64,000 bases of DNA from NCBI GenBank assembly GCA_040220235.1, contig JAVJTO010000051.1. One strand, 5' to 3'. The number at the start of each line of letters is the position of its first letter. The first letter of the stretch is position 1. This DNA comes from Coleofasciculus sp. B1-GNL1-01 (GTDB lineage: Bacteria > Cyanobacteriota > Cyanobacteriia > Cyanobacteriales > Coleofasciculaceae). The notes under the pieces are model-generated. The model saw nothing but the letters and a program-made list of their open reading frames with translations, was not told the origin of the DNA and searched no databases. Position numbers and translations under genes: made by a program. Positions 41,006 through 64,000 of the stretch are shown in pieces.

Positions 41006-41713
41006 ATGAGTTTAAAGGCAGTTCTGTTTGATTTCAACGGCGTGATTATCAACGATGAGTCGATTCACCAGCAACTCATCGAAGACATTCTGCTGGGTGA
41101 AAATCTGCGTCCCTCGGCGGCGGATTACTGGGAGGATTGTTTAGGGCGTAGCGATCGCGCTTGCTTAAAAGTGTTATTGGAGAAACGAGGTCGGGTACTG
41201 AGTGAGGAGGAATTAACCCGTTTAATCACCAAAAAAGCCAACGCCTACCGTCGTCAACTGAAAACTCTATCTAAATTACCGATATATCCGGGAGTCGAAG
41301 ATTTAATTTACAAAATCCGCGTGGCTCAACTCCCCATGGGGGTGGTGAGTGGGGCGTTGCGATCAGAAGTTGAGTTAGTCTTGGATCGAGCTGAATTATT
41401 GCAATATTTTCCGGTTATTGTGGCAGGTGATGACATTAAAGTGAGTAAACCGGAACCGGATGGCTATCTGTTAGCAGTGGAACGCCTCAATCAGCAGTTT
41501 CCACAACTTAATGCCAAATCCTCTGATTGTCTCGCCATTGAAGACACCCCGGCGGGTATTGAAGCGGCAAAACGAGCCGGGATGCAAGTCGTCGGCGTTG
41601 CTAATACCTATCCCTTCCACATGCTTCAGCGTCAAGCCGACTGGACGGTTGATTACCTGCATCAGCTTGAACTTGAGCGCGTGCAGGAAGTCTACGCTCA
41701 GGTTGTGGGTTAG
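41006..41713 (+). CDS. HAD-IA family phosphatase
   Basis: FDFNGVIINDE; SKPEPDGY; IEDTPAGIEAAKRAGM. Confidence 0.9.
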   Translation: MSLKAVLFDFNGVIINDESIHQQLIEDILLGENLRPSAADYWEDCLGRSDRACLKVLLEKRGRVLSEEELTRLITKKANAYRRQLKTLSKLPIYPGVEDLIYKIRVAQLPMGVVSGALRSEVELVLDRAELLQYFPVIVAGDDIKVSKPEPDGYLLAVERLNQQFPQLNAKSSDCLAIEDTPAGIEAAKRAGMQVVGVANTYPFHMLQRQADWTVDYLHQLELERVQEVYAQVVG

Positions 41714-50321: not shown

Positions 50322-50942
50322 ATGGAATGTCACAAATGTCAGAACACCTGCCACCGCAAGCCTAACAGAAGGAGGGGCTGGAAGTGGTGGAGCAAACCGC
50401 CGCAACCCTCACCCCTGAACACTGAACCGATTCCCCAAGTCGCGTTGGTGGGGACGCCCAATGTGGGTAAAAGTGTTCTGTTTAATGCCCTGACGGGTAC
50501 GTATGTCACCGTCTCCAACTATCCTGGTACAACGGTGGAAGTCTCCAGAGGTCAGATGACGGTTGGGGATCGCCTGTTTGCGGTGGTGGATACGCCAGGA
50601 ATGTATTCCCTACTCCCGATTACCGAAGAGGAAAAAGTGTCGCGGGATTTATTACTCCGCGAATCCGTAGACGTGGTGATTCATGTCGTCGATGCCAAAA
50701 ACTTAGGGCGGATGCTTCCCTTGACGTTTCAGCTTATTGAAGCAGGTTTGCCTGTGCTGTTAGCCGTGAACATGATCGATGAAGCCGAACAACTGGGGAT
50801 TCAGATTCACCGGGATCATCTGGAGATGGAATTAGGGATTCCGGTTGTCACTATGGCAGCGGCACTGAATGTTGGTTTACGAGACTTGAAATATAAGGTG
50901 GATGATTATGTTAAGTCAGGTTGCTTATCCGGAACCTATTGA
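50322..50942 (+). CDS. feoB: FeoB N-terminal GTPase domain encoded as a separate ORF
   Basis: GTPNVGKS; NYPGTTVE; DTPG; NMID. Confidence 0.88.
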   Translation: MECHKCQNTCHRKPNRRRGWKWWSKPPQPSPLNTEPIPQVALVGTPNVGKSVLFNALTGTYVTVSNYPGTTVEVSRGQMTVGDRLFAVVDTPGMYSLLPITEEEKVSRDLLLRESVDVVIHVVDAKNLGRMLPLTFQLIEAGLPVLLAVNMIDEAEQLGIQIHRDHLEMELGIPVVTMAAALNVGLRDLKYKVDDYVKSGCLSGTY

Positions 50943-52359
50943 GGGGGCGATCGCGAAACTGGAGTCTTTGTTATCACGATTGTCGCTATCCCAGGATTAT
51001 CCCCTATCTCGGCGTAGTATTGCCCTACTCTTATTGCAAAAAGATCCGGCATTGTGGCAACAGCTTCAGCTTCAGGGGACAGAAGCCGAAATTCAAGCCG
51101 CGATCGCCGATGCTGAGAGTCAGTTGGATGAACCGTTAATTTCTGTCATTGCTAAGGCGCGTCAGCAACGGGCGTGGGTGATCGAACAAACGGTTCTCAG
51201 CGAATCCAGTCAAGGCAAAACCCCGTTAGCGGAACGACTGCACCAACTCACGGTGAATCCGTGGACAGGATTTCCGATTTTGCTGGCGATTCTCTATTAC
51301 GGGGTTTACAAATTTGTCGGCGAATTCGGGGCGGGGACGATGGTGGATACCATTGAAACCTTCTTTGAGACATATATTAATCCCGTTGTCAACCAAACGG
51401 TAGCGGTCATTTTACCCTGGCAACCCCTACAGGATTTAATTGCCCACGATTACGGGATTATTACCTTAGGGATTCGCTATGCGGTGGCGATTGTCTTACC
51501 CGTGGTTGCTACATTCTTTTTAATGTTTTCCTTCCTGGAAGACAGTGGCTATCTGCCGCGACTATCCCTAATGCTAGATAACCTGTTCAAAGCGATCGGG
51601 TTATCGGGGCGGGCGGTAATTCCGATTGTGTTGGGATTGGGATGTGATACGATGGCAACCTTAGTCACGCGAACCCTGGAAACGACACGGGAACGACTGA
51701 TTGCCACATTTTTACTCTCCTTAGCCATTCCCTGTGCGGCACAGTGGGGGGTAATTGTGGGATTGTTAGCTCAAAAACCTGCCGCGTTGTTGATTTGGGG
51801 AGGAGTGATTGGGGCGATTTTTATGATTACGGGCTATTTAAGCGCCCGCATGCTTCCGGGAAACCCAGCTAGTTTTTACATGGAAATTCCCCCCTTGCGC
51901 TTTCCCAAACTGCAAAACATTCTGGTGAAAACCTATCTCAGAATGAAGTGGTATTTCTTGGAAATTATGCCCCTATTTATTTGGGCATCAGTGATTATTT
52001 GGTTTGGGCGTTTGACCGGGTTGTTTGGCTGGATTATTCGGGGGATTGAGCCGATTGCCTTAGGATTAGGATTGCCCAGAGAAGCTGCACCTATCTTTTT
52101 ATATGGCTTCTTCCGGCGGGATTACGGCGCAGCTGGGTTGTTTGATATGCAGCAAGAGGGGATTTTTACGGGGAATCAGTTGGTGGTGACAGCGATTGTG
52201 TTGACGCTGTTTTTACCTTGTATTGCCCAACTGCAAGTCATGTTGAAAGAGCGCGGGGCGAAAATAACCTGGGCGATTGTGGCATTTATTTTTCCCTTTG
52301 CCTTTTTTGTGGGATATCTGGTCAATAGTTTGTTAAATGTATTAGGAGTGACGATTTAA
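50908..52359 (+). CDS. feoB: FeoB membrane domain
   Basis: LEDSGYLPR; GLGCDT; AIPC; MEIPPLRFP; LFLPC. Confidence 0.88.
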   Translation: MLSQVAYPEPIEGAIAKLESLLSRLSLSQDYPLSRRSIALLLLQKDPALWQQLQLQGTEAEIQAAIADAESQLDEPLISVIAKARQQRAWVIEQTVLSESSQGKTPLAERLHQLTVNPWTGFPILLAILYYGVYKFVGEFGAGTMVDTIETFFETYINPVVNQTVAVILPWQPLQDLIAHDYGIITLGIRYAVAIVLPVVATFFLMFSFLEDSGYLPRLSLMLDNLFKAIGLSGRAVIPIVLGLGCDTMATLVTRTLETTRERLIATFLLSLAIPCAAQWGVIVGLLAQKPAALLIWGGVIGAIFMITGYLSARMLPGNPASFYMEIPPLRFPKLQNILVKTYLRMKWYFLEIMPLFIWASVIIWFGRLTGLFGWIIRGIEPIALGLGLPREAAPIFLYGFFRRDYGAAGLFDMQQEGIFTGNQLVVTAIVLTLFLPCIAQLQVMLKERGAKITWAIVAFIFPFAFFVGYLVNSLLNVLGVTI

Positions 52360-52578: not shown

Positions 52579-52907
52579 GGGGTAAAGGTTATCGGGTTTA
52601 GGGTGATTTTGGCTAGGGTTAGATTGACGACAAGTGGAGGGTTAGGCAATGCTGTGTCTTTACCCTAGACAAACCCCTCCCTAACCCTCCCCTGCAAGGG
52701 GAGGGAACTGGAATTGATTGAGAACGGGCAATTAAAGAGATTTCTGTGGGATTGGATTTAGGATCTATATTGATGATGAGAGGGTGTGGCAGTGCCATGC
52801 CCCTACCGTAATTCAAAAGATGGTTGATGGGGTAGGGGTACGATACTATCGTGCCCTTATGATTGTGATGTCAACCGCCCAGTTGACGGCAAGAGATTGG
52901 TTGAAAA

Positions 52908-53170
52908 TGCAAGCATCTGTGTCTGTTCAGGTTTGGAAGGCTGGGGAATGGGGTGCAAATCCATACAGGGCTTGGGTTTGCGGCTAGTTCAAGGAGGAGG
53001 GAGATGCTTGCAAAATGCTGGAATTCCTTGTATAGTAAGGGCTGTAGCGTTTTGGATTTTGGGAATTTTGCCCCGATTTGACCCGATTTTGGCGTGAGGA
53101 GAGTTGGATTTTGGAGATGCTTGCAAAATCGATTGGCAGCCATTATGATTTAAGGGGTCTAGCGATCGCG
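52908..53170 (+). promoter_or_regulatory. CRISPR leader 1 with sigma70-like promoter (TTGCAA 53121-26 / 17 bp / TATGAT 53144-49)
   Basis: 263-bp sequence closely similar to leader 63399-63661. Confidence 0.85.
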
Positions 53171-54136
53171 GTGCTATTACCTTTGATGCCGTAAGGCGTT
53201 GAGCACGCTCGCAAAAAAACGGTTTCTGACGTGATACGTGAGTGCTATTACCTTTGATGCCGTAAGGCGTTGAGCACAAAACTTAGTGTTCGACAAAGAT
53301 AACACTGTATCGTGCTATTACCTTTGATGCCGTAAGGCGTTGAGCACGATAGATTTTTATTCAGCCTATCGTGGATTTTTTGGGTGCTATTACCTTTGAT
53401 GCCGTAAGGCGTTGAGCACAGAGCATTTAGACCTACGGCGCTACCCAAGCCAGTTGTGCTATTACCTTTGATGCCGTAAGGCGTTGAGCACCCTTCCTAG
53501 AGGGTAAATACTATACTTTATCTTTAGAGTGCTATTACCTTTGATGCCGTAAGGCGTTGAGCACTGAACCGTATTCTCTTTCAAATCCATCGTGACTGTA
53601 GTGCTATTACCTTTGATGCCGTAAGGCGTTGAGCACGTTCTCAGCCGTGTTTAAGATTGTTTGATTTCCCTGGTGCTATTACCTTTGATGCCGTAAGGCG
53701 TTGAGCACTAGTAAACGAGCCTGGTCAAAAGGGCTGTCCTGCTGTTGTGCTATTACCTTTGATGCCGTAAGGCGTTGAGCACTTAGTTTAAGCTGTCAGC
53801 AAGCAACTGAGAATAAGTGCTATTACCTTTGATGCCGTAAGGCGTTGAGCACGATACAGTGTTCTTGGGAAAAGAGCACCTAGAGATCTGTGCTATTACC
53901 TTTGATGCCGTAAGGCGTTGAGCACCTCCTTTTCGGAAAGAGGTATTGTTCGAGCCTCTGTGCTATTACCTTTGATGCCGTAAGGCGTTGAGCACAGACT
54001 AATAACACACAACAAGACACTCGGTTAAATGTGCTATTACCTTTGATGCCGTAAGGCGTTGAGCACGAAGAATCCTTAGATGCGATCGCGAATAGTTCTC
54101 GTGCGATTACCTCAGATGCCAATCGGCGTGTTCAAC
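53171..54136 (+). CRISPR. CRISPR array 1: 13 identical 36-bp repeats GTGCTATTACCTTTGATGCCGTAAGGCGTTGAGCAC plus a degenerate terminal repeat (54101-54136); 13 spacers of 34-38 bp
   Basis: Repeats start at 53171, 53242, 53312, 53384, 53456, 53529, 53601, 53673, 53747, 53817, 53890, 53960 and 54031. Confidence 0.98.
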
Positions 54137-54156
54137 TCTAACCAAAGGTATCTTTT

Positions 54157-55809
54157 ATGCAAACACTTGATTCGACCCAAGACACGATTCGTGTGTCTGC
54201 CCTCCACGCCCTCGCTTATTGTCCGCGCCTATTCTATCTAGAAGAAGTCGAAGAACTCTACACCCAAGACGCCGCCGTTTTTGCAGGGCGCCGACTCCAT
54301 GTCGAACTGGAAAAACAAGAGGATGAAGACTGGGAAGACTTATTCCTAGAAAGCCCAGAACTCGGATTACGCGGTCGAGTGGACGCCCTCCGCACCCGCG
54401 ATGGACAAACCATTCCCTACGAACATAAACGCGGACGCTGTTACCGAGACGAGAACAATCAACCCCAAGCCTGGGACAGTGATAAACTGCAAATTCTCGC
54501 CTACGCTTACCTGATTGAATCGGCTTTGGGTATCCCAATTTCAGAAGGACGAATTCGTTACCACGCCGATAACGTCTTAGTTCATGTTCCCCTAGATGAT
54601 CTCGGACGCGCCACGGTGCGAGATGCTATCCAACAAGCGCGAATTCTGCGACAATCCAGTCATCGTCCCCCCGTCACCGACAACGAGAGGATGTGTGTCC
54701 GTTGTTCCCTCTCCCCCGTCTGTTTACCCGAAGAAGCCCGACTCGCCCATAATCGGGAATGGCAACCGATGCGCCTCTTTCCCCCGGATGATGAACGCCA
54801 GGTGATTCATGTCTTGGAACCCGGAACAGCCGTTGGGCGTACCGGGGAACAACTGAAACTCAGCCGCCGGGGTCAACCTGTGGAAACGGTTCCCGTGCGT
54901 CAGGTGGGACAACTCGTCCTCCATAGTTTCTCCCAAATCTCCACCCAAGCGCTGCATTTTTGTGTGACTCAAGGAATTGGTGTGCATTTTATTTCTGGGG
55001 GTGGACGTTATATCGGTAGTTTTGATACCCGACAAGGCAGTATTCAGCGGCGCATCCATCAATATCAAGCCTTGAGTCAGCCGGATACTTGTCTGGAATT
55101 AGCCCGAAAATTAGTCACCTGTCGCGGTCAAGTACAGCGCAAATTCCTGATGCGGGGAAAGCGTGGCAGTCAGGGAAAATCGGCTAAACTAAAACGTGCG
55201 ATCGCGCAGATGAAAGCGGTACTAAAAAATGTCTCTTCTGCCCCATCTCGTGAATCGTTATTGGGATTGGAAGGGAATTTAGCCGCGTCCTATTTTGCCG
55301 CGTTACCCTGTTTAATTGCCGCCACAGTTCCGCCTGAATTACGCTTTGACCATCGCAATCGCCGCCCCCCCAAAGACCGATTTAATGCTTTGTTGAGTTT
55401 TGGCTATGCCTTATTAATTAAGGATGTGATGAATGCCATCCTCACCGTGGGACTAGAACCCGCATTGGGATTTTACCACCAACCTCGTTCTCAAGCTTCA
55501 CCATTGGCACTGGATTTAATGGAAATTTTCCGAGTTCCGTTGGTGGATATGGTGGTTATGGCTTCGATTAATAAAGGTCAGTGGGATGTACAAGCTGACT
55601 TTGACGTGCGAGGAGTACAGGTGTGGTTAAGTGATACGGGACGACGAAAGTTCGTGGGTTTATATGAACGCCGGAAACAGGAAACCTGGAAGCATCCTGT
55701 TACGGGTTATTCTCTCACCTATCGCCGTTTGTTGGAACTTGAAGTCCGTTTGCTGGAAAAAGAATGGTTCGGTGAAGGCGGTTTATTTGGTCAATTAATA
55801 GTGCGTTGA
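54157..55809 (+). CDS. cas1: Cas4-Cas1 fusion
   Basis: N-terminal YCPR..GRVD..EHKRG..C..CSL..VC (Cas4); C-terminal LLGLEG..YF..RRPPKDRFNALLSFGY..GFYH..LALDLMEIFR (Cas1). Confidence 0.95.
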   Translation: MQTLDSTQDTIRVSALHALAYCPRLFYLEEVEELYTQDAAVFAGRRLHVELEKQEDEDWEDLFLESPELGLRGRVDALRTRDGQTIPYEHKRGRCYRDENNQPQAWDSDKLQILAYAYLIESALGIPISEGRIRYHADNVLVHVPLDDLGRATVRDAIQQARILRQSSHRPPVTDNERMCVRCSLSPVCLPEEARLAHNREWQPMRLFPPDDERQVIHVLEPGTAVGRTGEQLKLSRRGQPVETVPVRQVGQLVLHSFSQISTQALHFCVTQGIGVHFISGGGRYIGSFDTRQGSIQRRIHQYQALSQPDTCLELARKLVTCRGQVQRKFLMRGKRGSQGKSAKLKRAIAQMKAVLKNVSSAPSRESLLGLEGNLAASYFAALPCLIAATVPPELRFDHRNRRPPKDRFNALLSFGYALLIKDVMNAILTVGLEPALGFYHQPRSQASPLALDLMEIFRVPLVDMVVMASINKGQWDVQADFDVRGVQVWLSDTGRRKFVGLYERRKQETWKHPVTGYSLTYRRLLELEVRLLEKEWFGEGGLFGQLIVR

Positions 55810-55817
55810 GGTGGGAT

Positions 55818-56111
55818 ATGGGTGAACAAAAAAACTGGTACTTAATTTGTTACGATATCCGCTGTCCCAAGCGCTGGCGCAAGGCGTATAAGTTACTTCA
55901 GGGATACGGTGAGCGGATTCAATACTCTATTTTCCGCTGTTTTTTGACCTTGCGGGGACGGGAAAAGTTGCGATGGGAGTTGGAGAGGGTATTAAAGGCG
56001 GAGGATAGTTTATTGCTAATTCGTCTTTCCGATCAATGTGTAAGTGGACTTCGCGCTTATAATCGTCCTGAGGCTTGGTCTGAGGTTCAAGCGGGATATC
56101 GGATTGTTTGA
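55818..56111 (+). CDS. cas2: Cas2
   Basis: WYLICYDIRCPKRWRK..GYGERIQYSIF. Confidence 0.95.
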   Translation: MGEQKNWYLICYDIRCPKRWRKAYKLLQGYGERIQYSIFRCFLTLRGREKLRWELERVLKAEDSLLLIRLSDQCVSGLRAYNRPEAWSEVQAGYRIV

Positions 56112-56307
56112 TGCAACACTTAAGATTACCTCGGATGCCATTAGGTGTTGATTGATCATGTTTTAACCTCTCTCCTACAAGGAGAGAGTGCTTTTCTACT
56201 CTTGGAAATGGTGTATCACATTGAGTCTGAAAACGCTGTAGCAGCGAGCAAGATGTTAGCAGCGAGCAAGATGCTCGCACTACTATAAGGATGGGTTTGG
56301 GAAAGGC

Positions 56308-56542
56308 TTGCCAAACCGATTGGCAGTTATTATGATTTAAGAGTTCCTGTGATCGCTGTGCCATTACCTTTGATGCTGTAAGCGTTGAGTAGAGTAGAGT
56401 AGAGTACCCATTAGGTGTTGAGCAGAGCAGCGTTGAGCACTATCCCGTAAGTTGGACAGTTGCTGTGAAGCGGGCGGTGAGATTTATTCTTACTTGGGTC
56501 TTGCTGTCCTTGTTCCCTCAGATGCCGTCAGGCGTTTTTCTT
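56308..56542 (+). ncRNA. Candidate crRNA-like regulatory RNA (leader-type promoter, pseudo-repeat, spacer matching the cas6 promoter, pseudo-repeat/terminator)
   Basis: TTGCCA-17-TATGAT at 56308-56336; pseudo-repeat 56358-56440 ending in an intact GCGTTGAGCAC; spacer from 56441 TATCCCGTAAGT; second pseudo-repeat 56507-56542 with GATGCC/GGCGTT stem and T-run. Confidence 0.7.
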
Positions 56543-56558
56543 GAATTTCCTTTTACTG

Positions 56559-56587
56559 TTGACGAGGTGTATAAACCAATGTATCCT
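56559..56587 (+). promoter_or_regulatory. Predicted promoter of the cas6-cas3-cas8-cas7-cas5 operon
   Basis: TTGACG (56559-64), 17 bp, TATCCT (56582-87). Confidence 0.7.
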
Positions 56588-56736
56588 GTAAGTAAGAATA
56601 GAACATCTTAAGCCAGATGGTGCTGAAATTTTGGCTGGTGGGCAATACCCACCCTACGACTGATTTGAGTGCCATTCATCCCCACCTCTGATCGCCGTCA
56701 GGCGCTGAAAACACCTGGTTTCAACTAGGTTCAACA

Positions 56737-57372
56737 ATGAATTCGACAATAGTAGAACGGCAAACAGGTGCGTCTCCTATCGAACTGTTTGTCAATTTAA
56801 GCTTTAGTATTCAAGGACAAATGCTGCCGGCTGATCACGGCTTTGGCTTGTTTTCGGCTTTATCTAAACTTTGTGCGGCGATTCACCAGCAGAATGAAAT
56901 TCAGATATTGACGATTCCCGGTATTCCCGATCGCCAAGGGAAGATTGCGCTGACGGATAGATCGCGCCTGCTGATTCGTTTACCGATTACCAAGATTCCC
57001 TTGGTTTATGCGATCGCGGGAAAGCGAGTTCACATTGGTAATCATCCCATCCAGATTGGGATTCCCAGGATTGAACCCCTCAACGCCAAGTCAAGGGTGC
57101 GATCGCGGATTGTGACGATTAAAGGTTATACCGAACCCGAATCCTTCCTCCAGGCGGCGCAGCGTCAACTGAATCGGTTGGGGGTGTCGGGAGAGGTGCG
57201 AATTCCTCTAAATCGGGATCAAACACCAAAGCGCAAAGCGATAAAAATTCAGCAGGATACGGTAGTTGGATTTACCACTGAAGTTAGCCATCTTAGTGAA
57301 GAGGATTCCCTGACATTGCAACGGTGGGGATTAGGAGGGCGGCGACACATGGGTTGTGGGGTGTTTTTGTAA
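56737..57372 (+). CDS. cas6: Cas6 (Cmx6, MYXAN type)
   Basis: LPADHGFGLFSALS; RIVTIKG; Gly-rich loop GLGGRRHMGCGVF. Confidence 0.93.
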   Translation: MNSTIVERQTGASPIELFVNLSFSIQGQMLPADHGFGLFSALSKLCAAIHQQNEIQILTIPGIPDRQGKIALTDRSRLLIRLPITKIPLVYAIAGKRVHIGNHPIQIGIPRIEPLNAKSRVRSRIVTIKGYTEPESFLQAAQRQLNRLGVSGEVRIPLNRDQTPKRKAIKIQQDTVVGFTTEVSHLSEEDSLTLQRWGLGGRRHMGCGVFL

Positions 57373-57497
57373 CCACTGATTTGACAGATTTATGGGGGAG
57401 ATGGGGGTGGGGGTGAGAGGTTAGTCACACTGATTACACTGAAACGTTAGTTCTCTCGTCTTGGGATGCTGAATCTGCCGCGAAAATTAGGTTGATT

Positions 57498-59849
57498 ATG
57501 TCTAAATTTAAACGACTTCTGGCTAAATCTATCTCTGATTCTGACTCAATTCGGAGTCAAAATGCGGCAAGATTTATAGGTCATATTGCTTTAGTTAAAC
57601 GAGGGGCTGAGGTATTACTTCAGCGTTTAGATAAACGGATTTTTCAACAACTGGGATTGGATGAGAATGAAGTGGAATTATTTACCAATACGGTGAGATT
57701 GGGGGCGTACTTACATGATTGGGGTAAGGCAAATCAGCATTTTCAAGAGATGGTTTATCTGCATACTGCCAAAAAATCCCAAGATCCGAAAAAACGGGAC
57801 AAGCTTAAACAACTGCGTCAATTATGGAATAAACATCAGGGTAAACAAATGATTCGCCATGAAGTTTTAAGCGGTATCCTCGCCTTGCGTGTTCCTGAAT
57901 TTCGCCATTGGTTAGAACAATGTCCCAATACTAATCTGGTGATAGCTGTTTGGGCGGCGATGGGACATCATTTGAAGATGAGTTCTGACCTGGACTTGAC
58001 AATCCGTAGTGGTACCGGAAGTGGTTTATTTATTTATACCGACCACAATGATTTTAAACAAATGTTAAAAATGGGTCGGCAATTGGGACTCCCGGCTAAT
58101 TTGCCTGCCGTTCCTGGAAAAGTTTGGCAGAAGGAAGAACTAGAACGAGAATTAAAAGAATTATATCAGGAATTTGACCAGATTGAACAGCAGATTATCG
58201 CTGAAAACGATACTAGGCGACTGAGATTTATTGCGGCGGTGAAAGCTACGGTAATCGCGGCGGATTTAGCGGGTTCGGCTTTACCTGTTGTGGACGAGAA
58301 TATTAAGGATTGGATTGAGAACGTTTTATCGATTACCCTATCTGAAAACGACTTAGATCAGGTTCTCCAACAACGACTGCAAGGGAAAAAATTACGCCCG
58401 TTTCAACAGAAAATTGCCGCGACTCCCCATCGAATTACTTTAGTTAAAGCCGGGTGTGGTACGGGAAAAACCGTTGGGGCGTATGCGTGGGCAAAAAAAT
58501 GGGCAGGCGATCGCAAGTTATTTTTTGGCTATCCGACGACGGGAACCGCGACTCAGGGGTTTATTGATTACGCCCATGAGACAAAAATTGAAGCCGATTT
58601 AATGCATTCTCGCGCTGATTTAGACCGAGAGATCTTGTTTTCTGGGGATGAAGATGAAGGGATTGAGGATCGCTTAGCCGCCCTCACCGCTTGGAGACAA
58701 AAGTTGATTGTTTGCACCGTAGATACGGTTTTGGGGCTAATGCAAAATAATCGGCGATCGCTGTATTCCTGGAGTGCGATCGCTCAAGGGGCTTTTGTGT
58801 TTGATGAGGTTCATGCTTATGATAACCGCTTATTTGGGGCTTTATTGCGATTTATAGACACCTTTCGCGGCGCACCCATTCTGTTGATGAGTGCCAGTTT
58901 TACACCAGAACAGATTCAGGCAATTCAAGGAGTAGTTGGCGAATTAGGAGAAGCGACTCAGATTATTGAAGGTCCGAAAAATTTAGAAGTTTTACCGCGA
59001 TATCAGATTGAGTCTATCCCATCAGCCGATAACGCTTGGCAGAAGGTGCGAGAAACCTTAACTCGTCAACACCAGAATAAAGTGTTATGGGTGACAAATT
59101 CGGTTAACACCTGTCGGGAACTGTATCTAGAGGCAAAAAAACAGCTTCCGGATTCAATCCCTATATTAATTTATCACAGTCGCTATCGCTATTTTGACCG
59201 ATTGGAGAAACATAAAGCCGTGATCAACGCCTTTGAACGTGACGGGGCGGTGTTAGCAATTACCACTCAAGTTTGTGAAATGTCCTTAGATTTGAGTGCG
59301 GATTTATTAGTCACGCCCATCGCCCCAGCATCGGCGTTAATTCAGCGATTAGGGCGATTAAATCGGCGGGTGATTACTACAGCAAACTATCGGGTAAAAC
59401 TGGCGTCGGGTCAAATTACCCCAGCCTTAGTTTACCCCTGGGATGATTCACGTCCTTATTCCCAAGACGAATTAGAAACGGGACAGCAGTTGGTTAATAA
59501 ACTAGCCGAAAAAGTGATTTCCCAGCAAGATTTAGCCACGATTGTCGCCCAAATGTCTACTCCAGAACAACAGCCAAGTCAATCGGAATGGTTAGAGGGA
59601 TGTTGGTGTACCCGTCCTAATTTTCTACGGGAACCGGGCTATACGATTACGGTTTTACTAGAGGAAGATTTAGTTAATATTAAAAATGCCGCCAATCAAC
59701 GTCAGGATAAATCCTTTAAAAAAGAACGTCAACGGTGGACAATTCCAATTCGGATTATCCCTGGGTTTGAGAAGTGGCGGCGGAATGGATATTATCCCAT
59801 CGCACCCCCTGATCAAGTGGAATACAGTTCAGAAACAGGGGCAAAATGA
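57498..59849 (+). CDS. cas3: Cas3 HD nuclease-helicase
   Basis: LHDWGKAN; RHE; GHH; AADLAGS; GCGTGKT; FDEVH; YHSRY; TQVCEMSLD; QRLGRLNR. Confidence 0.95.
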   Translation: MSKFKRLLAKSISDSDSIRSQNAARFIGHIALVKRGAEVLLQRLDKRIFQQLGLDENEVELFTNTVRLGAYLHDWGKANQHFQEMVYLHTAKKSQDPKKRDKLKQLRQLWNKHQGKQMIRHEVLSGILALRVPEFRHWLEQCPNTNLVIAVWAAMGHHLKMSSDLDLTIRSGTGSGLFIYTDHNDFKQMLKMGRQLGLPANLPAVPGKVWQKEELERELKELYQEFDQIEQQIIAENDTRRLRFIAAVKATVIAADLAGSALPVVDENIKDWIENVLSITLSENDLDQVLQQRLQGKKLRPFQQKIAATPHRITLVKAGCGTGKTVGAYAWAKKWAGDRKLFFGYPTTGTATQGFIDYAHETKIEADLMHSRADLDREILFSGDEDEGIEDRLAALTAWRQKLIVCTVDTVLGLMQNNRRSLYSWSAIAQGAFVFDEVHAYDNRLFGALLRFIDTFRGAPILLMSASFTPEQIQAIQGVVGELGEATQIIEGPKNLEVLPRYQIESIPSADNAWQKVRETLTRQHQNKVLWVTNSVNTCRELYLEAKKQLPDSIPILIYHSRYRYFDRLEKHKAVINAFERDGAVLAITTQVCEMSLDLSADLLVTPIAPASALIQRLGRLNRRVITTANYRVKLASGQITPALVYPWDDSRPYSQDELETGQQLVNKLAEKVISQQDLATIVAQMSTPEQQPSQSEWLEGCWCTRPNFLREPGYTITVLLEEDLVNIKNAANQRQDKSFKKERQRWTIPIRIIPGFEKWRRNGYYPIAPPDQVEYSSETGAK

Positions 59850-59907
59850 TTTGTAGGGGCGCTATCCTTGCGCCCGAAAAACTCAAGGAAACGCCAATAA
59901 TTTGAAT

Positions 59908-60082
59908 CAGGGCGGGTTTTGTTGTTCATTTATCGGTGAGGAGGGCGGGTTTTGTTGTTCATTTATCGGTGAATATCTGAATTTAGTCCCTAAACCCGCC
60001 CCTACAGATTCCCTAAACCCGCCCCGACAATTGATTCCCTAAACCCGCCCCGACAATTGTCCCTAAACCCGCCCCGACAATC
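59908..60082. repeat. Cluster of REP-like units: 2x AGGGCGGGTTTTGTTGTTCATTTATCGGTGA and 4x CCCTAAACCCGCCCC(T/G)ACA; related copies at ~19570-19635, ~36349-36410 and ~61725-61792
   Basis: Tandem and inverted repeats visible between cas3 and cas8. Confidence 0.8.
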
Positions 60083-60130
60083 CGGATTAATCAAAGGTAA
60101 ATTCATAACTAATAGGTCGATTAAACGTTT

Positions 60131-61633
60131 ATGTCAACCCAATTAACTTTAAAATTAAATAATCCTCACTTTACTTTACTCCATCGCGCCGGATTAGCTG
60201 GGTTATGGATGAGTTTAAAGCAACTTGAAGCCGAAACAAATATTCGCGATCGCCCGGGTTATATTACCTGGGAACTAACACAGCGTCAGGTGAGTTTACA
60301 GTGGGAGGGAGAGGATTTTCAAGTCTTAAATTGGCTATTAAACGAATCCTTTCAATTAGACGATGGACGGATATCTTTAAGAGGATTAGTCTCGAAGACA
60401 ATGGACATTCAATCTCAGTTAATCCTGCACCAAGGTATCCTGGGAACATTTTTACAACATAATAAAACCCATACATCTACAGGACTTGTCTCTAAATCCT
60501 TTGTGATTGAAGAAGGTAAACCCGAATTAGTGGCGCGATATAAACATCTCTCTGGATACATCTATCAACAGGCAAAAATACTGTGTGACAAGCAGGGAAA
60601 ATTCCTCACCAAACCGATTAAAGTACCGGGATGGTTAAATCCGGGGACAGTAGTACGACATATTGCCTTTAGTTCCAGTACCAGCTTTGAAGAACCACCA
60701 GACGCCGTATTCGTTTTATTATTTGCCGCCGTAGCCTGTTGTTACTATTCGATTCGGTCTAAATTACGGGATAAACGGGCAGAATATGCTTTAGTAATTC
60801 CCGAAATTACCGACTTAGCCGCTTATGCCAATTGGCGGCGTCATCGGAAATGGCGCGAGGAGGGATACAAGGACTTTTTTGCCTCTGGGTTAGGGGATGC
60901 GGGGTTAAAATTTTTGACTTATATTACTAAGGATATTTTGGCAGAACGTCCCTTACAACGCTGTCAGGTGATTACATTAGGAACAGTTCCTTGGGCAAGT
61001 CAACAAAAAACGCGCACGGATTTGTATTTAGTGGAGGCAAATGAACGAATTGAGCGGAATTATCAGGTTTGCGATAATTATTTAAGTACCCGTGATGTGG
61101 CGGGGAAAGAAGGGTTGTTTATTTCCTGTAGTTTTGCCAGGGAGTTAATTGCAGAAAACTTAGCCAGGGGTAAACATTGGTATGCAGGTTTGGCAGATAA
61201 TGCCACAAGTAACGAGTTATTTCAAAAATTGACCTATGAACGCGGAGGACTAAATCAGATGGTTCAAGAAGTGGAATGGGATCGAGAAAGTGAGAAGCTA
61301 TTTGTCAAGGCTTGTCATGAAGCGATCGCCTATAACCATAAACAACTTTATAAACGAGCAAAAGAGAAGAAGGAAGAGCCGAATTATGAACGGGAGGATA
61401 CCAAATTTCGCACCGGATTAGCACGGTGTAAAACCGCTGTGGCGTTTCGGGAGTTTATTACCGATTACTTGTCGAGGGCGCAATTTATGCCCACCCTGGA
61501 GGAAAATTGGGAAGAGTTTATGGATTTGATTCTGGGGGCAAAGGATTGGAAAAAAGGACGAGATTTAGCGTTATTAGCCTTAGCCAGTTATCAGCGCAGT
61601 AGTCAGAGTCAAGAGGAGGAATTTGATTTTTAA
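60131..61633 (+). CDS. cas8: Cas8a1/Cmx1 (DevT-like) large subunit
   Basis: TLLHRAGLAGLWMSL; GILGTFLQH; WLNPG..VRH; WASQQKTRT; RDLALLALASY. Confidence 0.9.
   Translation: MSTQLTLKLNNPHFTLLHRAGLAGLWMSLKQLEAETNIRDRPGYITWELTQRQVSLQWEGEDFQVLNWLLNESFQLDDGRISLRGLVSKTMDIQSQLILHQGILGTFLQHNKTHTSTGLVSKSFVIEEGKPELVARYKHLSGYIYQQAKILCDKQGKFLTKPIKVPGWLNPGTVVRHIAFSSSTSFEEPPDAVFVLLFAAVACCYYSIRSKLRDKRAEYALVIPEITDLAAYANWRRHRKWREEGYKDFFASGLGDAGLKFLTYITKDILAERPLQRCQVITLGTVPWASQQKTRTDLYLVEANERIERNYQVCDNYLSTRDVAGKEGLFISCSFARELIAENLARGKHWYAGLADNATSNELFQKLTYERGGLNQMVQEVEWDRESEKLFVKACHEAIAYNHKQLYKRAKEKKEEPNYEREDTKFRTGLARCKTAVAFREFITDYLSRAQFMPTLEENWEEFMDLILGAKDWKKGRDLALLALASYQRSSQSQEEEFDF
61259..61633 (+). CDS. cas11: Putative internally initiated Cas11 small subunit (124 aa, in frame within cas8)
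   Basis: GGAGG at 61244-48 ahead of in-frame ATG 61259 (MVQEVEW..). Confidence 0.7.
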   Translation: MVQEVEWDRESEKLFVKACHEAIAYNHKQLYKRAKEKKEEPNYEREDTKFRTGLARCKTAVAFREFITDYLSRAQFMPTLEENWEEFMDLILGAKDWKKGRDLALLALASYQRSSQSQEEEFDF

Positions 61634-61846
61634 TAGTAAATGTTGTCAGGGCGTGTAGGGGCGAAGCATTGGTGCCACCATCTTTATCCGAATCCGAATA
61701 ATTTTGGGTTTTAATCATCAATTGAATCAGGGCGGGTTTCGTTGTTCAGTTATCAGTCACCCCCTTAATTAAGTCCCTAAACCCGCCCCTACAGCCCAGA
61801 TCTCAACCCCAAAGTAATCAATTATCAACCATTTGGAGAACAAATC

Positions 61847-62767
61847 ATGACCTTTCATTTATTTGGCAATATCTTAACTAGCTACGGCACCGCCGCCAAT
61901 AACCGTGGCGAAAATGAAGGCAATATTACCACCCTGCAAAAACTCCTCTGGAAAGGAGAGGTTCACACCACCGTATCCGCTGAAGCCATCCGCTGGGCGC
62001 TACGATACTATTGGCAAACTGCTGGGGGTGACTATGCGGTAAATCGCTGTTGGGATGATCAGAAAAATGATAATGTTTTACAGGGGAGTTTTGATGAAAC
62101 CACCTACATTGATGATGATGTCCTCGGTTACATGAAAGCGGAAGGGGCGAAACAAGAATTTAGTGACGAAGAGAAAAAAGGGAAAGGGAAGAAAGCCAAA
62201 GGGACTAATTTAGCAAGGCGGGGAGTCTTAGAAGTCACTCGCGCTGTTTCCACGATTCCTTATGCGGGAGATATTACCTTTAATTCCGCCAGTGGACAAA
62301 AGGGGAGAACCTCTCTTTATGGCACAGAAGTTCACGCCACGCGCTATCAATATGGGTTCGCTTTAACCCCTAATCGATTGAAAGAGACATCTCGGATCAT
62401 TCCAGTGTTAGACGGGTTAGTATCCCTAGGAGAAGTCGCCGGAAACCACGCCCGTTTTCTCTATGATTTTTCGCCAGAAAGTTTAGTCTTGCGGTGGACA
62501 CAGGATTTCTCGCCTCGGATTCTCTATTGTTTCCAGGAAAATGAAGATGGGGAGATATCTTTGCCCAGTTTAATCCATCGTGTGGAAGTGGGAGACATTG
62601 AAGCAACGGAACTTTGGGTAGCCGGTGCAATTGCCAAAACCCCAGAGGGCGATCGCTTGGAGGAATTAGGTGCTAATGTGCTAGCGGGGACAAAAGTAGC
62701 ACTTTCGACGCTAAAACAACGGATTGCTGATGATTTACAGTTACCGCAATTGGAGGGAGTATCATGA
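61847..62767 (+). CDS. cas7: Cas7 (Cst2/DevR)
   Basis: AANNRGENEGNITTLQK; VSAEAIRWALR; IDDDVLGYM; VAGNHARFLYDFSP. Confidence 0.93.
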   Translation: MTFHLFGNILTSYGTAANNRGENEGNITTLQKLLWKGEVHTTVSAEAIRWALRYYWQTAGGDYAVNRCWDDQKNDNVLQGSFDETTYIDDDVLGYMKAEGAKQEFSDEEKKGKGKKAKGTNLARRGVLEVTRAVSTIPYAGDITFNSASGQKGRTSLYGTEVHATRYQYGFALTPNRLKETSRIIPVLDGLVSLGEVAGNHARFLYDFSPESLVLRWTQDFSPRILYCFQENEDGEISLPSLIHRVEVGDIEATELWVAGAIAKTPEGDRLEELGANVLAGTKVALSTLKQRIADDLQLPQLEGVS

Positions 62768-63396
62768 TTACCGCCCTCAAAGTTGAGGTTCCCATCGCCT
62801 GTTTCCGTGTCTCCCGCGCCAGGGAATATGCCCAAACTTATCCGGTTCCGCCTCCAGCTACGGTTTATGGTATGCTTTTATCCATGGTGGGAGAAATGGA
62901 TCGATATCGGTATTGTGGGACTAAGTTAGCGATCGCACTATTAAATGAGCCGGAAAAATCCACCATCCTCCGCACCTTTCGCCGATTCAAAAAGAAGCAA
63001 ATCTTTGATCCCACGAATGCCCGTCCTGATTATCAAGAGTTACTCAGTGATATTCAGTTTATCGTCTGGGTAGCCTCTGGAAACGACAACGCCCAACCAA
63101 CATTATGCCAACGATTAACCGAGGCGATCGCGAATCCAGAAACGGTGGATCGATTTGGTGGGTTAAGTTTGGGTGAAAGTCGGGATTTAGTCAATGCGAT
63201 TAATTTGTTACCGGAAGACTATCGGGGTGAATCCCTACGCTGGTTAGTGCAGCAGGAGGATGGTTTGTTAACATTACCCTATTGGGTGGATCACGTTGGT
63301 TCAAAAGGAACCCGTTGGCAACGATTTCAGTTACTTCCTCCCCGTGAATGGTGTCAACCGCCGGATAATGCGTGGATAGAGATTCGGGTGGAGTAA
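62764..63396 (+). CDS. cas5: Cas5 (Cmx5/DevS)
   Basis: VPIACFR..YPVPPPATVYGMLLSMVGE; RPDYQELL; LSLGES; LPYWVDHVGS. Confidence 0.93.
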   Translation: MITALKVEVPIACFRVSRAREYAQTYPVPPPATVYGMLLSMVGEMDRYRYCGTKLAIALLNEPEKSTILRTFRRFKKKQIFDPTNARPDYQELLSDIQFIVWVASGNDNAQPTLCQRLTEAIANPETVDRFGGLSLGESRDLVNAINLLPEDYRGESLRWLVQQEDGLLTLPYWVDHVGSKGTRWQRFQLLPPREWCQPPDNAWIEIRVE

Positions 63397-63398
63397 TT

Positions 63399-63661
63399 TG
63401 CAAGCATCTGTGTCTGTTGAGGGTTTGAAGGCTGGGGAATAGGGTGCAAATCCAGACAGGGCTTGGGTTTGCGGCTAGTTCAAGGGTGGGGGAGATGCTT
63501 GCAAAATGCTGGAATTCCTCTCAGGGTAAGGGTTATAGCGTTTTGGGTTTTGGCAAAATTAGCCAAATTTGAGTCAATTTTGGCGTGAGGAGAGTTGGAT
63601 TAGGGAGATGCTTGCAAAACCGATTGGCAGCCATTATGATTTAAGGGTTCGCGCGATCGCG
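63399..63661 (+). promoter_or_regulatory. CRISPR leader 2 (TTGCAA 63612-17 / 17 bp / TATGAT 63635-40)
   Basis: Close copy of leader 1. Confidence 0.85.
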
Positions 63662-64000
63662 GTGCTATTACCTTTGATGCCGTTAGGCGTTGAGCACAGG
63701 ATATTTTGGCTGATTTATAGCATTTTTGTCTAAGGTGCTATTACCTTTGATGCCGTTAGGCGTTGAGCACGATAAGTACTTTTGTAAGTATCCTCGCTTT
63801 AATTGTGCTATTACCTTTGATGCCGTTAGGCGTTGAGCACATCAATCAGCATGAAGAAAGCAGCCAGCAACTTAATGTGCTATTACCTTTGATGCCGTTA
63901 GGCGTTGAGCACCGTTGTCCAGTGGTACTTGAATCAGTTTCCTGAGTGCTATTACCTTTGATGCCGTTAGGCGTTGAGCACACTATCCTCCTTAATATTC
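63662..64000 (+). CRISPR. CRISPR array 2 (continues past the window): 5 repeats GTGCTATTACCTTTGATGCCGTTAGGCGTTGAGCAC
   Basis: Repeats at 63662, 63735, 63805, 63877 and 63946; differs from array 1 by one loop base (GTTA vs GTAA). Confidence 0.97.

Follow-up and report, generated by a model that had tools for sequence, protein, structure and literature searches.

Does the gap between cas2 and cas6 of a cyanobacterial CRISPR-Cas locus encode a guide RNA that directs Cascade to the promoter of its own cas operon? The question arises from a 64,000-nt stretch of contig JAVJTO010000051.1 of Coleofasciculus sp. B1-GNL1-01 (hereafter the window), which holds a complete type I-B system of the MYXAN branch: cas4-cas1, cas2, a gap of 625 nt, cas6, cas3, cas8a1, cas7 and cas5, with an array on each flank (Table 1). 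Cmx6, Cas3, Cas8a1/Cmx1, Cas7/DevR, Cas5/DevS and Cas1-MYXAN all score above curated cut-offs, with TIGR02807, TIGR01587, TIGR03485/03486, TIGR02585 and TIGR02586 as the family models of the operon, which places the system in I-B MYXAN and agrees with the genes called earlier. The closest named relative is Coleofasciculus sp. (locus L013), whose Cas6 is 98% identical to that of the window. All 18 full repeats of the array type in the genome are confined to the two arrays, and Rfam gave no match within 52800-64000. A minus-strand open reading frame at 55927-56364, which has no Pfam match, was judged spurious.

Table 1. Features of the cas locus and of the guide unit in the cas2-cas6 gap (positions in the window).
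Feature	Position	Strand	Remarks
CRISPR array 1	53171..54136	+	13 exact repeats, followed by a degenerate one at the end
cas4-cas1 fusion and cas2	54157..56111	+	upstream of the guide unit
Array-leader copy	56292..56357	+	predicted promoter TTGCCA (56308-56313), 17 nt, TATGAT (56331-56336)
First pseudo-repeat, scrambled	56358..56432	+	degenerate repeat 56358-56390, pentamers, second repeat fragment 56405-56425
Stem arms in first pseudo-repeat	56372..56378 (5' arm), 56428..56434 (3' arm)	+	3' arm as given in the earlier note; ends at 56432 in the present analysis
crRNA 5' handle, 8 nt	56433..56440	+	identical to last 8 nt of array repeat; predicted mature 5' end
Guide seed	56441..56452	+	11 of 12 nt identical to 56582-56593, mismatch at nt 6
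Extra hairpin	56472..56509	+	between a spacer of normal length and the second pseudo-repeat; recurs in the window's Cas6 clade
Second pseudo-repeat	56507..56542	+	intact stem 56521-56534, T-run; either a terminator or a predicted Cas6 cut site after 56534
Predicted promoter of cas6-cas3-cas8-cas7-cas5	56559..56587	+	TTGACG, 17 nt, TATCCT; 9/12 consensus
PAM, ATG	56579..56581	+	from PAMs of related systems and the tally across relatives
Target (protospacer)	56582..56593	+	over predicted -10 box and discriminator
Third repeat-like hairpin, cas6 5' leader	56690..56704	+	kept in G003 and G686; similar in 8/31 units
cas6/Cmx6	56737..57372	+	first gene of the predicted regulated operon (56737..63396)
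cas3	57492..59849	+	predicted regulated operon
cas8a1/Cmx1 (DevT family)	60131..61633	+	predicted regulated operon
cas7/DevR	61847..62767	+	predicted regulated operon
cas5/DevS	62764..63396	+	last gene of the predicted regulated operon
CRISPR array 2	63662..63981	+	5 repeats

Within the gap lie two degenerate repeats around a single spacer, outside the arrays and inside the cas locus, as in CreR. An earlier note on this DNA had proposed such a guide, and all of its coordinates proved correct when re-checked against the sequence. The promoter TTGCCA-17-TATGAT that it described is present at 56308-56336, and is part of a 91-nt segment copied from an array leader together with the start of a repeat, with identities of 82% and 84% to the leaders of the two arrays; the predicted transcription start of the unit is near 56343. 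As the orthologous unit in G686, the nearest diverged relative, lacks this leader copy, the copy is lineage-specific. The exact 8-nt repeat end reported to finish at 56440 is there, as is the second pseudo-repeat with its intact GATGCC/GGCG stem and T-run at 56507-56542. That stem starts 80 nt after the guide start, and a terminator scan of the window did not list the T-run hairpin. The third hairpin, on which the earlier note was silent, lies 33 nt before the cas6 start and is a possible Cas6 site for binding or cutting the enzyme's own mRNA leader. Pentamer repeats (AGTAG, AGAGC) occupy 56386-56404 and 56421-56430 within the first pseudo-repeat, and their copy number differs in the relative G003; the distant loci L139, L146, L123 and L019 likewise have pentamers in their first pseudo-repeat, along with handle copies in tandem at a period of 15 nt. 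A tandem repeat of variable copy number (56240-56292) sits immediately 5' of the leader copy.

The guide starting at 56441 matches a site 141 nt downstream, at 56582, in 11 of 12 nt, nt 6 being the one mismatch, and ATG stands at 56579-56581, exactly as had been claimed. Past nt 12, identity is restricted to nt 15-16 and scattered bases. By chance, ATG followed by all 10 seed positions would be expected 2.3e-5 times in the 625-nt intergenic region; among the 26 occurrences of the seed pattern in the whole genome of 8.66 Mb, ATG or ACG precedes the window target alone. A second apparent ATG-flanked match (from the 56412 region to 56137) was dismissed because both sides consist of repeat-derived sequence. 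The target covers the predicted promoter of the cas6 operon, whose boxes are conserved in G003 and G686. Although the sequence between the boxes diverges in G686, that genome keeps TTGAC-17-TATCCT, and this conservation backs the prediction that TATCCT is the -10 box. RNA data for the window consist of contigs from four metatranscriptome runs, whose cover is flat over genes, arrays and gaps, so that neither expression level nor RNA ends can be read from them.

To ask how general this arrangement is, we drew on 133 cas6/Cmx6 places from three genome searches, of which 100 were fetched with their flanks (the 33 omitted were mostly lower-scoring); the plasmid locus of Synechocystis PCC 6714, six named loci and the window were added and four duplicates removed, the final set being 108. 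Guides were taken as the bases following an 11-nt repeat end (at most 2 mismatches) located outside arrays, and targets as matches to at least 9/10 of nt 1-5 and 7-11, on either strand, between -2500 and +300 of cas6, with no PAM required. Guide and target co-vary strongly across relatives, a test that the earlier note had asked for: 40/108 cyanobacterial loci satisfied this rule, and their 31 distinct seeds, which form 24 clusters, each match the locus they come from, although the surveyed loci are related and the counts are not independent. Guides swapped between clusters matched in only 2/1488 pairs, and array spacers in 4/447. Between the window and G686 nt 7 changed from G to A in both guide and target, while TTGAC, ATG and the TATCCT box were kept. 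Looser handles add L150, L158 and L163, and L158 and L163 differ from each other by paired changes.

The survey also bears on the PAM, which the earlier note had taken to be ATG. In the PAM-blind tally, ATG precedes 32/33 perfect matches and 46/74 of those at 9/10 or better, in agreement with the PAMs of related systems, namely AYG for the Cascade of PCC 6714 (PMC11096372) and ATG as the dominant PAM of RoCAST and PmcCAST (bioRxiv 2021.10.18.464778). The 17 spacers of the window's own system, from which the earlier note had expected a PAM, gave none: array 1 had just two weak matches among phages, both to one Streptomyces phage (E about 1), and repeat matches only among plasmids, and 415 pooled spacers yielded no usable protospacer in the spacers' own genome and the fetched loci. 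The PAM-reading Cas5 loop of PCC 6714 falls in a gapped section of a 22% alignment.

Positions on which no selection was made bear on the pairing. Nucleotide 6 is matched in 6/31 units and nt 12 in 10/31, against 21-23/31 for nt 13-16; nt 18 is matched in 10/31, and positions beyond it in 5-11/31, which is background. The result is a 5+1 match pattern, also described for the PCC 6714 Cascade (PMC11096372). Judged from the aligned guides and targets, the free nt 6, 12 and 18 follow the period of Cas7 base flipping and are a Cascade signature.

The site of the target is less uniform. In the window it covers the predicted -10 box and in PCC 6714 the -35 region; in several loci it falls downstream of the promoter and in others at the cas6 start, and a strict sigma-70-like promoter lies within -120 to +90 of the target in only 15/40 positive loci; with few strict promoters and targets at or inside the cas6 start, the geometry of any blocking varies. 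Targets at or inside the cas6 start were seen in L139, L146, L147, L170, L178, L180, L201 and L204, where the ATG PAM may double as the start codon of cas6 if the target is at that start. A pair of targets was seen in L147, L170, L178, L180 and L204; one of the two lies upstream of the guide, which suggests that the guide also limits its own transcript. In L219 and L168 the unit directly adjoins a true array, forming the last array element in L219. Apparent decay was seen in L142, with a 1-nt gap at target position 6, and in L019, where the handle is lost and cas3 matches poorly.

For one orthologue, published data provide evidence of expression, of a 5' end at the handle and of a target that overlaps a mapped promoter. 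In Synechocystis PCC 6714 the unit lies on plasmid pSYLB between a WYL gene and hicB-hicA-cas6. In Table S1 of Kopf et al. (2015; PMC5386190), the non-coding, unannotated transcript TU6041 spans 41118-41245 with an alternative start at 41165, and its maximum of 45,734 reads is the highest among 90 of the 99 pSYLB rows. The predicted handle, placed from sequence before the transcript table was consulted, begins with the base at 41165. The base is a U without a good -10 box upstream, so that processing fits better than initiation; the end itself comes from exonuclease-treated libraries, a chemistry meant for primary ends (PMC5386190). Array transcripts, which would serve as a control for Cas6 ends, are absent from those same 90 of 99 rows. 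The table coordinates are consistent with the sequence record, the WYL unit ending 22 nt past the annotated stop. The hicB-hicA-cas6 unit, TU6042, starts at 41300 with a maximum of 936 reads (PMC5386190, Table S1), and the predicted target lies at -40 to -24 of this start, behind ATG, with 15 of the first 17 nt matched.

How the guide would be released is less certain in the window itself. The earlier note had described a Cas6-type stem with a compensatory change between 56372-56378 and 56428-56434; the letters are as described, but this is not the favoured fold. In the predicted transcript (56343-56545; ViennaRNA) the long-range stem has a pairing probability of about 0, since its 5' arm is taken up by a local hairpin whose probability is about 0.9, and imposing the long stem carries a penalty of 8.7 kcal/mol. 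Comparison across relatives favours stems of this kind: in 21/31 distinct units the four bases that precede the handle can be paired with an arm further upstream, with loops ranging from normal size to about 60 nt; PCC 6714 belongs to the enlarged-loop cases, and G686 had no detectable stem before the handle in this comparison. The innermost pair of the 21 stems is C-G in 11, T-A in 7, G-C in 2 and A-T in 1. The innermost base is not G in 11 units, 10 of which keep the pair through a matching change, while swapped stem arms pair in 15/502 cases. The compensated stem of the window thus appears to belong to a real pattern among these units, and its function there is plausible. The cut site is nonetheless uncertain, as the stem competes with two nearer hairpins: the local hairpin would direct Cas6 to 56385, and the repeat fragment adds a candidate site near 56418. 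Of these sites, only 56433 would release the guide if cut there.

Downstream of the guide, a second hairpin follows in 30/31 distinct units, at 34-58 nt in 14 and at 71-90 nt in 16, the window being in the longer class. Units of this class carry an extra hairpin after a spacer of normal length. RNAalifold applied to the clade alignment found the stem of the second pseudo-repeat only; in a count made by hand after that run, 74-82% of cells in the extra hairpin were paired, compared with 36-55% for slid controls of the whole structure, and its co-variation was not above that of shuffles (53/500 match the score). Support for this structure in the window's Cas6 clade is moderate.

Taken together, we consider it very probable that the unit is a CreR-type guide RNA gene and that Cascade would act through it as an autorepressor at the cas6 promoter, the repression step being predicted. 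For the window we infer Cas6 cutting, Cascade loading, repression, absence of cleavage and sensing. The promoter copied from the array leader would transcribe the unit, and Cas6 would cut at the handle and at the second pseudo-repeat to release an RNA some 100 nt long that runs from 56433 to about 56534. This RNA would load into the I-B Cascade of Cas5/DevS, Cas7/DevR and Cas8a1/DevT; the complex would recognise the ATG PAM, and nt 1-5 and 7-12 would pair with the template strand over the -10 box, so that Cascade bound to the cas6 promoter would block RNA polymerase. We propose that the duplex is too short to license Cas3, and that the DNA is therefore bound and not cut. Cascade would in this way cap its own synthesis, and repression would ease when array crRNAs compete for the complex or an anti-CRISPR disables it. 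Experiments on CreA/CreR of I-B, I-E and V-A systems showed that a short match brings about repression while the DNA stays uncut, and that crRNAs and anti-CRISPRs lift it (bioRxiv 2023.03.10.532045).

Other readings of the unit are less probable. It might serve mainly as the antitoxin of an addiction module of the CreTA/CrePA type, held against a toxic first gene or RNA, with cas repression as a by-product of co-transcription. Where relatives have their target further upstream, a small unannotated ORF stands first behind it; six such ORFs share a coiled coil and an S-x-D-x-x-x-x-x-D-type end and are candidate Cascade-repressed toxins; in PCC 6714 hicB-hicA (L121:8571-8982) is co-transcribed with cas6 behind the targeted promoter. 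Precedents exist as well, since the CreA of Haloarcula represses toxin and cas8 promoters together (bioRxiv 2023.03.10.532045) and I-F systems include a known case, CreP, in which the toxin is a protein (bioRxiv 2024.01.05.574328). The window, however, offers only a 143-nt leader between the start predicted near 56594 and cas6, with no conserved ORF (the frame differs in G003 and G686) and hence no toxin candidate; an RNA toxin could still exist in that leader, and the toxicity of the ORFs is only putative. We regard this reading as unlikely for the window.

We give still less weight to action through the hairpins alone, in which Cas6 would bind or cut the pseudo-repeats to trim mRNAs, or be soaked up by them, and the seed match would be secondary. 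Repeat-like hairpins do occur at 56120-56155, 56521-56534 and 56690-56704, and the leader hairpin is conserved and present in 8/31 units, but co-varying seeds, an invariant ATG and free sixth and twelfth positions are left unexplained, and we hold the reading to be very improbable as a full account. Such action can coexist with autorepression as a second layer. Nor would we expect a neutral relic, a duplicated leader and repeat whose self-derived spacer decayed to escape autoimmunity. The 5' part of the unit is visibly a leader duplication, and decayed units exist (L019, L142); decay would not, however, keep nt 1-5 and 7-11 across 24 clusters while freeing nt 6 and 12, and neither a paired change of guide and target nor an abundant transcript in PCC 6714 is expected under it. 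The survey counts, the change at nt 7 and the PCC 6714 transcript have already largely refuted the relic, to which we attach next to no probability.

Autorepression by a Cascade-bound guide belongs to a class known since 2021-2023, here in the I-B MYXAN branch, and our surprise is limited accordingly. CreR of types I-E and V-A and the haloarchaeal I-B CreA (Liu et al., bioRxiv 10.1101/2023.03.10.532045) are, like the unit of the window, degenerate two-repeat mini-CRISPRs in a cas locus; in both, the first pseudo-repeat keeps the 8-nt handle and the second keeps the 3'-handle hairpin, and a short seed match stands beside the system's PAM at a cas promoter, as a stand-alone element with no toxin. 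The unit described here differs from them in its Cascade lineage (Cas8a1/Cmx1 and Cmx8, ATG PAM), in its place upstream of cas6, from which it would also control cas6 and cas3, in being driven by a copied array leader, and in a first pseudo-repeat that often has an enlarged loop, with an extra hairpin in the window's clade. Closer in position are the I-B crlRNA mini-arrays of Shmakov et al. (PMC10120712), which lie in the same place upstream of cas6 and share the predicted target (the cas6 promoter), the PAM and the free sixth position; the I-B cases named there are Clostridium and Fusobacterium, whereas ours is a cyanobacterium, and their repeat-similarity search would probably have difficulty with a repeat whose loop is enlarged. 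In CreTA and CrePA (bioRxiv 10.1101/2024.01.05.574328; Li et al., 2021, as cited there) a partially matching crRNA-like RNA likewise represses a neighbouring promoter, and some relatives resemble them in having a small ORF or hicBA behind the target, unlike the window with its lack of a toxin candidate.

The earlier note was not aware of a described example in this lineage. That part stands, in that literature searches found no paper describing the cyanobacterial I-B MYXAN unit, but the class had already been described, including the I-B mini-arrays upstream of cas6 (PMC10120712). Cyanobacteria, Synechocystis, Myxococcus and WYL are unmentioned in the text of bioRxiv 2023.03.10.532045, the supplement of which could list such loci; cyanobacteria, Synechocystis and Myxococcus are likewise unmentioned in PMC10120712 and two of its supplements, while its Supplementary files 2-5 may list cyanobacterial loci. 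The same three names do not occur in the covered sections of the CrePA and phage-mimic preprints, nor is cas self-repression of the present kind mentioned in those of a 2025 review of cyanobacterial type I systems. With the unit, RNA-guided CRISPR-Cas self-repression would extend to the I-B MYXAN branch, on comparative evidence that is unusually clean, and it offers a function for an abundant unannotated RNA of Synechocystis PCC 6714. Because the I-B Cascade of PCC 6714 has been structurally solved and used in genome editing, the circuit is testable at once, and the engineering of endogenous I-B systems is affected, as their output would be capped by an autorepression loop.

Among loci with at least 900 nt upstream (n=101), 37/63 cas3-containing loci were positive, compared with 0/34 cas3-less loci and 0/4 others. 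TniQ is present in 19/27 cas3-less loci whose nearest upstream ORFs were scanned, which indicates that the cas3-less loci are largely CRISPR-associated transposons, and in a quick tree they fall mostly in one Cas6 clade, so that the 34 represent a few events. Where a WYL gene abuts cas6, 1/14 loci were positive, against 36/49 elsewhere, and the sister pairs L144/L145 and L130/L131 of the quick tree differ by this WYL-versus-unit pattern. The alternation is partly a lack of room, but in the negatives a scan of all the sequence fetched revealed no unit further upstream. Outside the cyanobacteria, a scan that required ATG gave 11 clear cases (12 with a doubtful one) in 39 mostly planctomycete loci; the planctomycete units (L023, L026, L031, L033, L034, L046, L049, L051, L062, L065 and L068) have the order handle, guide, ATG and target on the opposite strand and are transcribed away from cas6. 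Metagenomes scanned with a GC-rich DevT-family alignment yielded 61 loci, and 0/22 with enough upstream DNA passed the rule, which counts against generality of the unit. The arrays at these loci share the same repeat end, and L276 and L277 carry a weak 9-of-10 candidate.

These DevT-family relatives lead to Myxococcus xanthus, whose dev operon matches the same family models as the window (DevT, DevR, DevS). Loss of any one of DevT, DevR and DevS increases the dev transcript 10- to 20-fold and leads to overproduction of DevI, which inhibits sporulation and whose gene stands first in the operon (bioRxiv 10.1101/415331, 10.1101/2023.07.26.550624). A 2021 review (PMC8616872) calls the DevTRS mechanism unknown and leaves guiding by something other than a crRNA open; it reports that none of the array spacers matches and that Cas6 is dispensable. 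Unlike in the window, no guide RNA is described for the dev operon. The M. xanthus genome has a second Cas6, 66% identical, which the dev Cas6 can replace (PMC6061681), and this redundancy could blunt the argument from Cas6 dispensability. For the myxobacterial B type, PAM prediction ranks ATG first (PMC11237760). One may thus speculate that RNA-guided self-repression is general in I-B MYXAN and is the missing mechanism of DevTRS autoregulation; that devI, the coiled-coil ORFs and hicBA are Cascade-repressed growth inhibitors; and that the RNA brake alternates with WYL and is missing from transposon-borne cas3-less systems. Given the 0/22 result in GC-rich relatives, we hold this wider reading to be possible but rather doubtful. 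If true, the unit offers an explanation of how DevTRS represses the dev operon in Myxococcus.

Several minor features of these loci may be recorded. The small first ORFs gave 0/13 matches above Pfam cut-off and weak PHROG matches in 2/13 (E 0.005-0.008). The coiled-coil ORFs lie at L016:2638-2844, L121:8282-8479, L123:10722-11060 (minus strand), L144:5719-5886, L162:3268-3474 and L169:7945-8178 (minus strand), and a second, HTH-like set of small ORFs occurs in L128, L135 and L164. In the window, feoB (50322-52359) is split into two overlapping ORFs, each under the full-length cut-off, a possible frameshift. Dispersed short repeats occupy the cas3-cas8 gap (59897-60088) and the cas8-cas7 gap (61717-61812), and right behind the cas2 stop is a degenerate repeat (56120-56155), shared with G003, at which the cas1-cas2 mRNA may be ended or processed.
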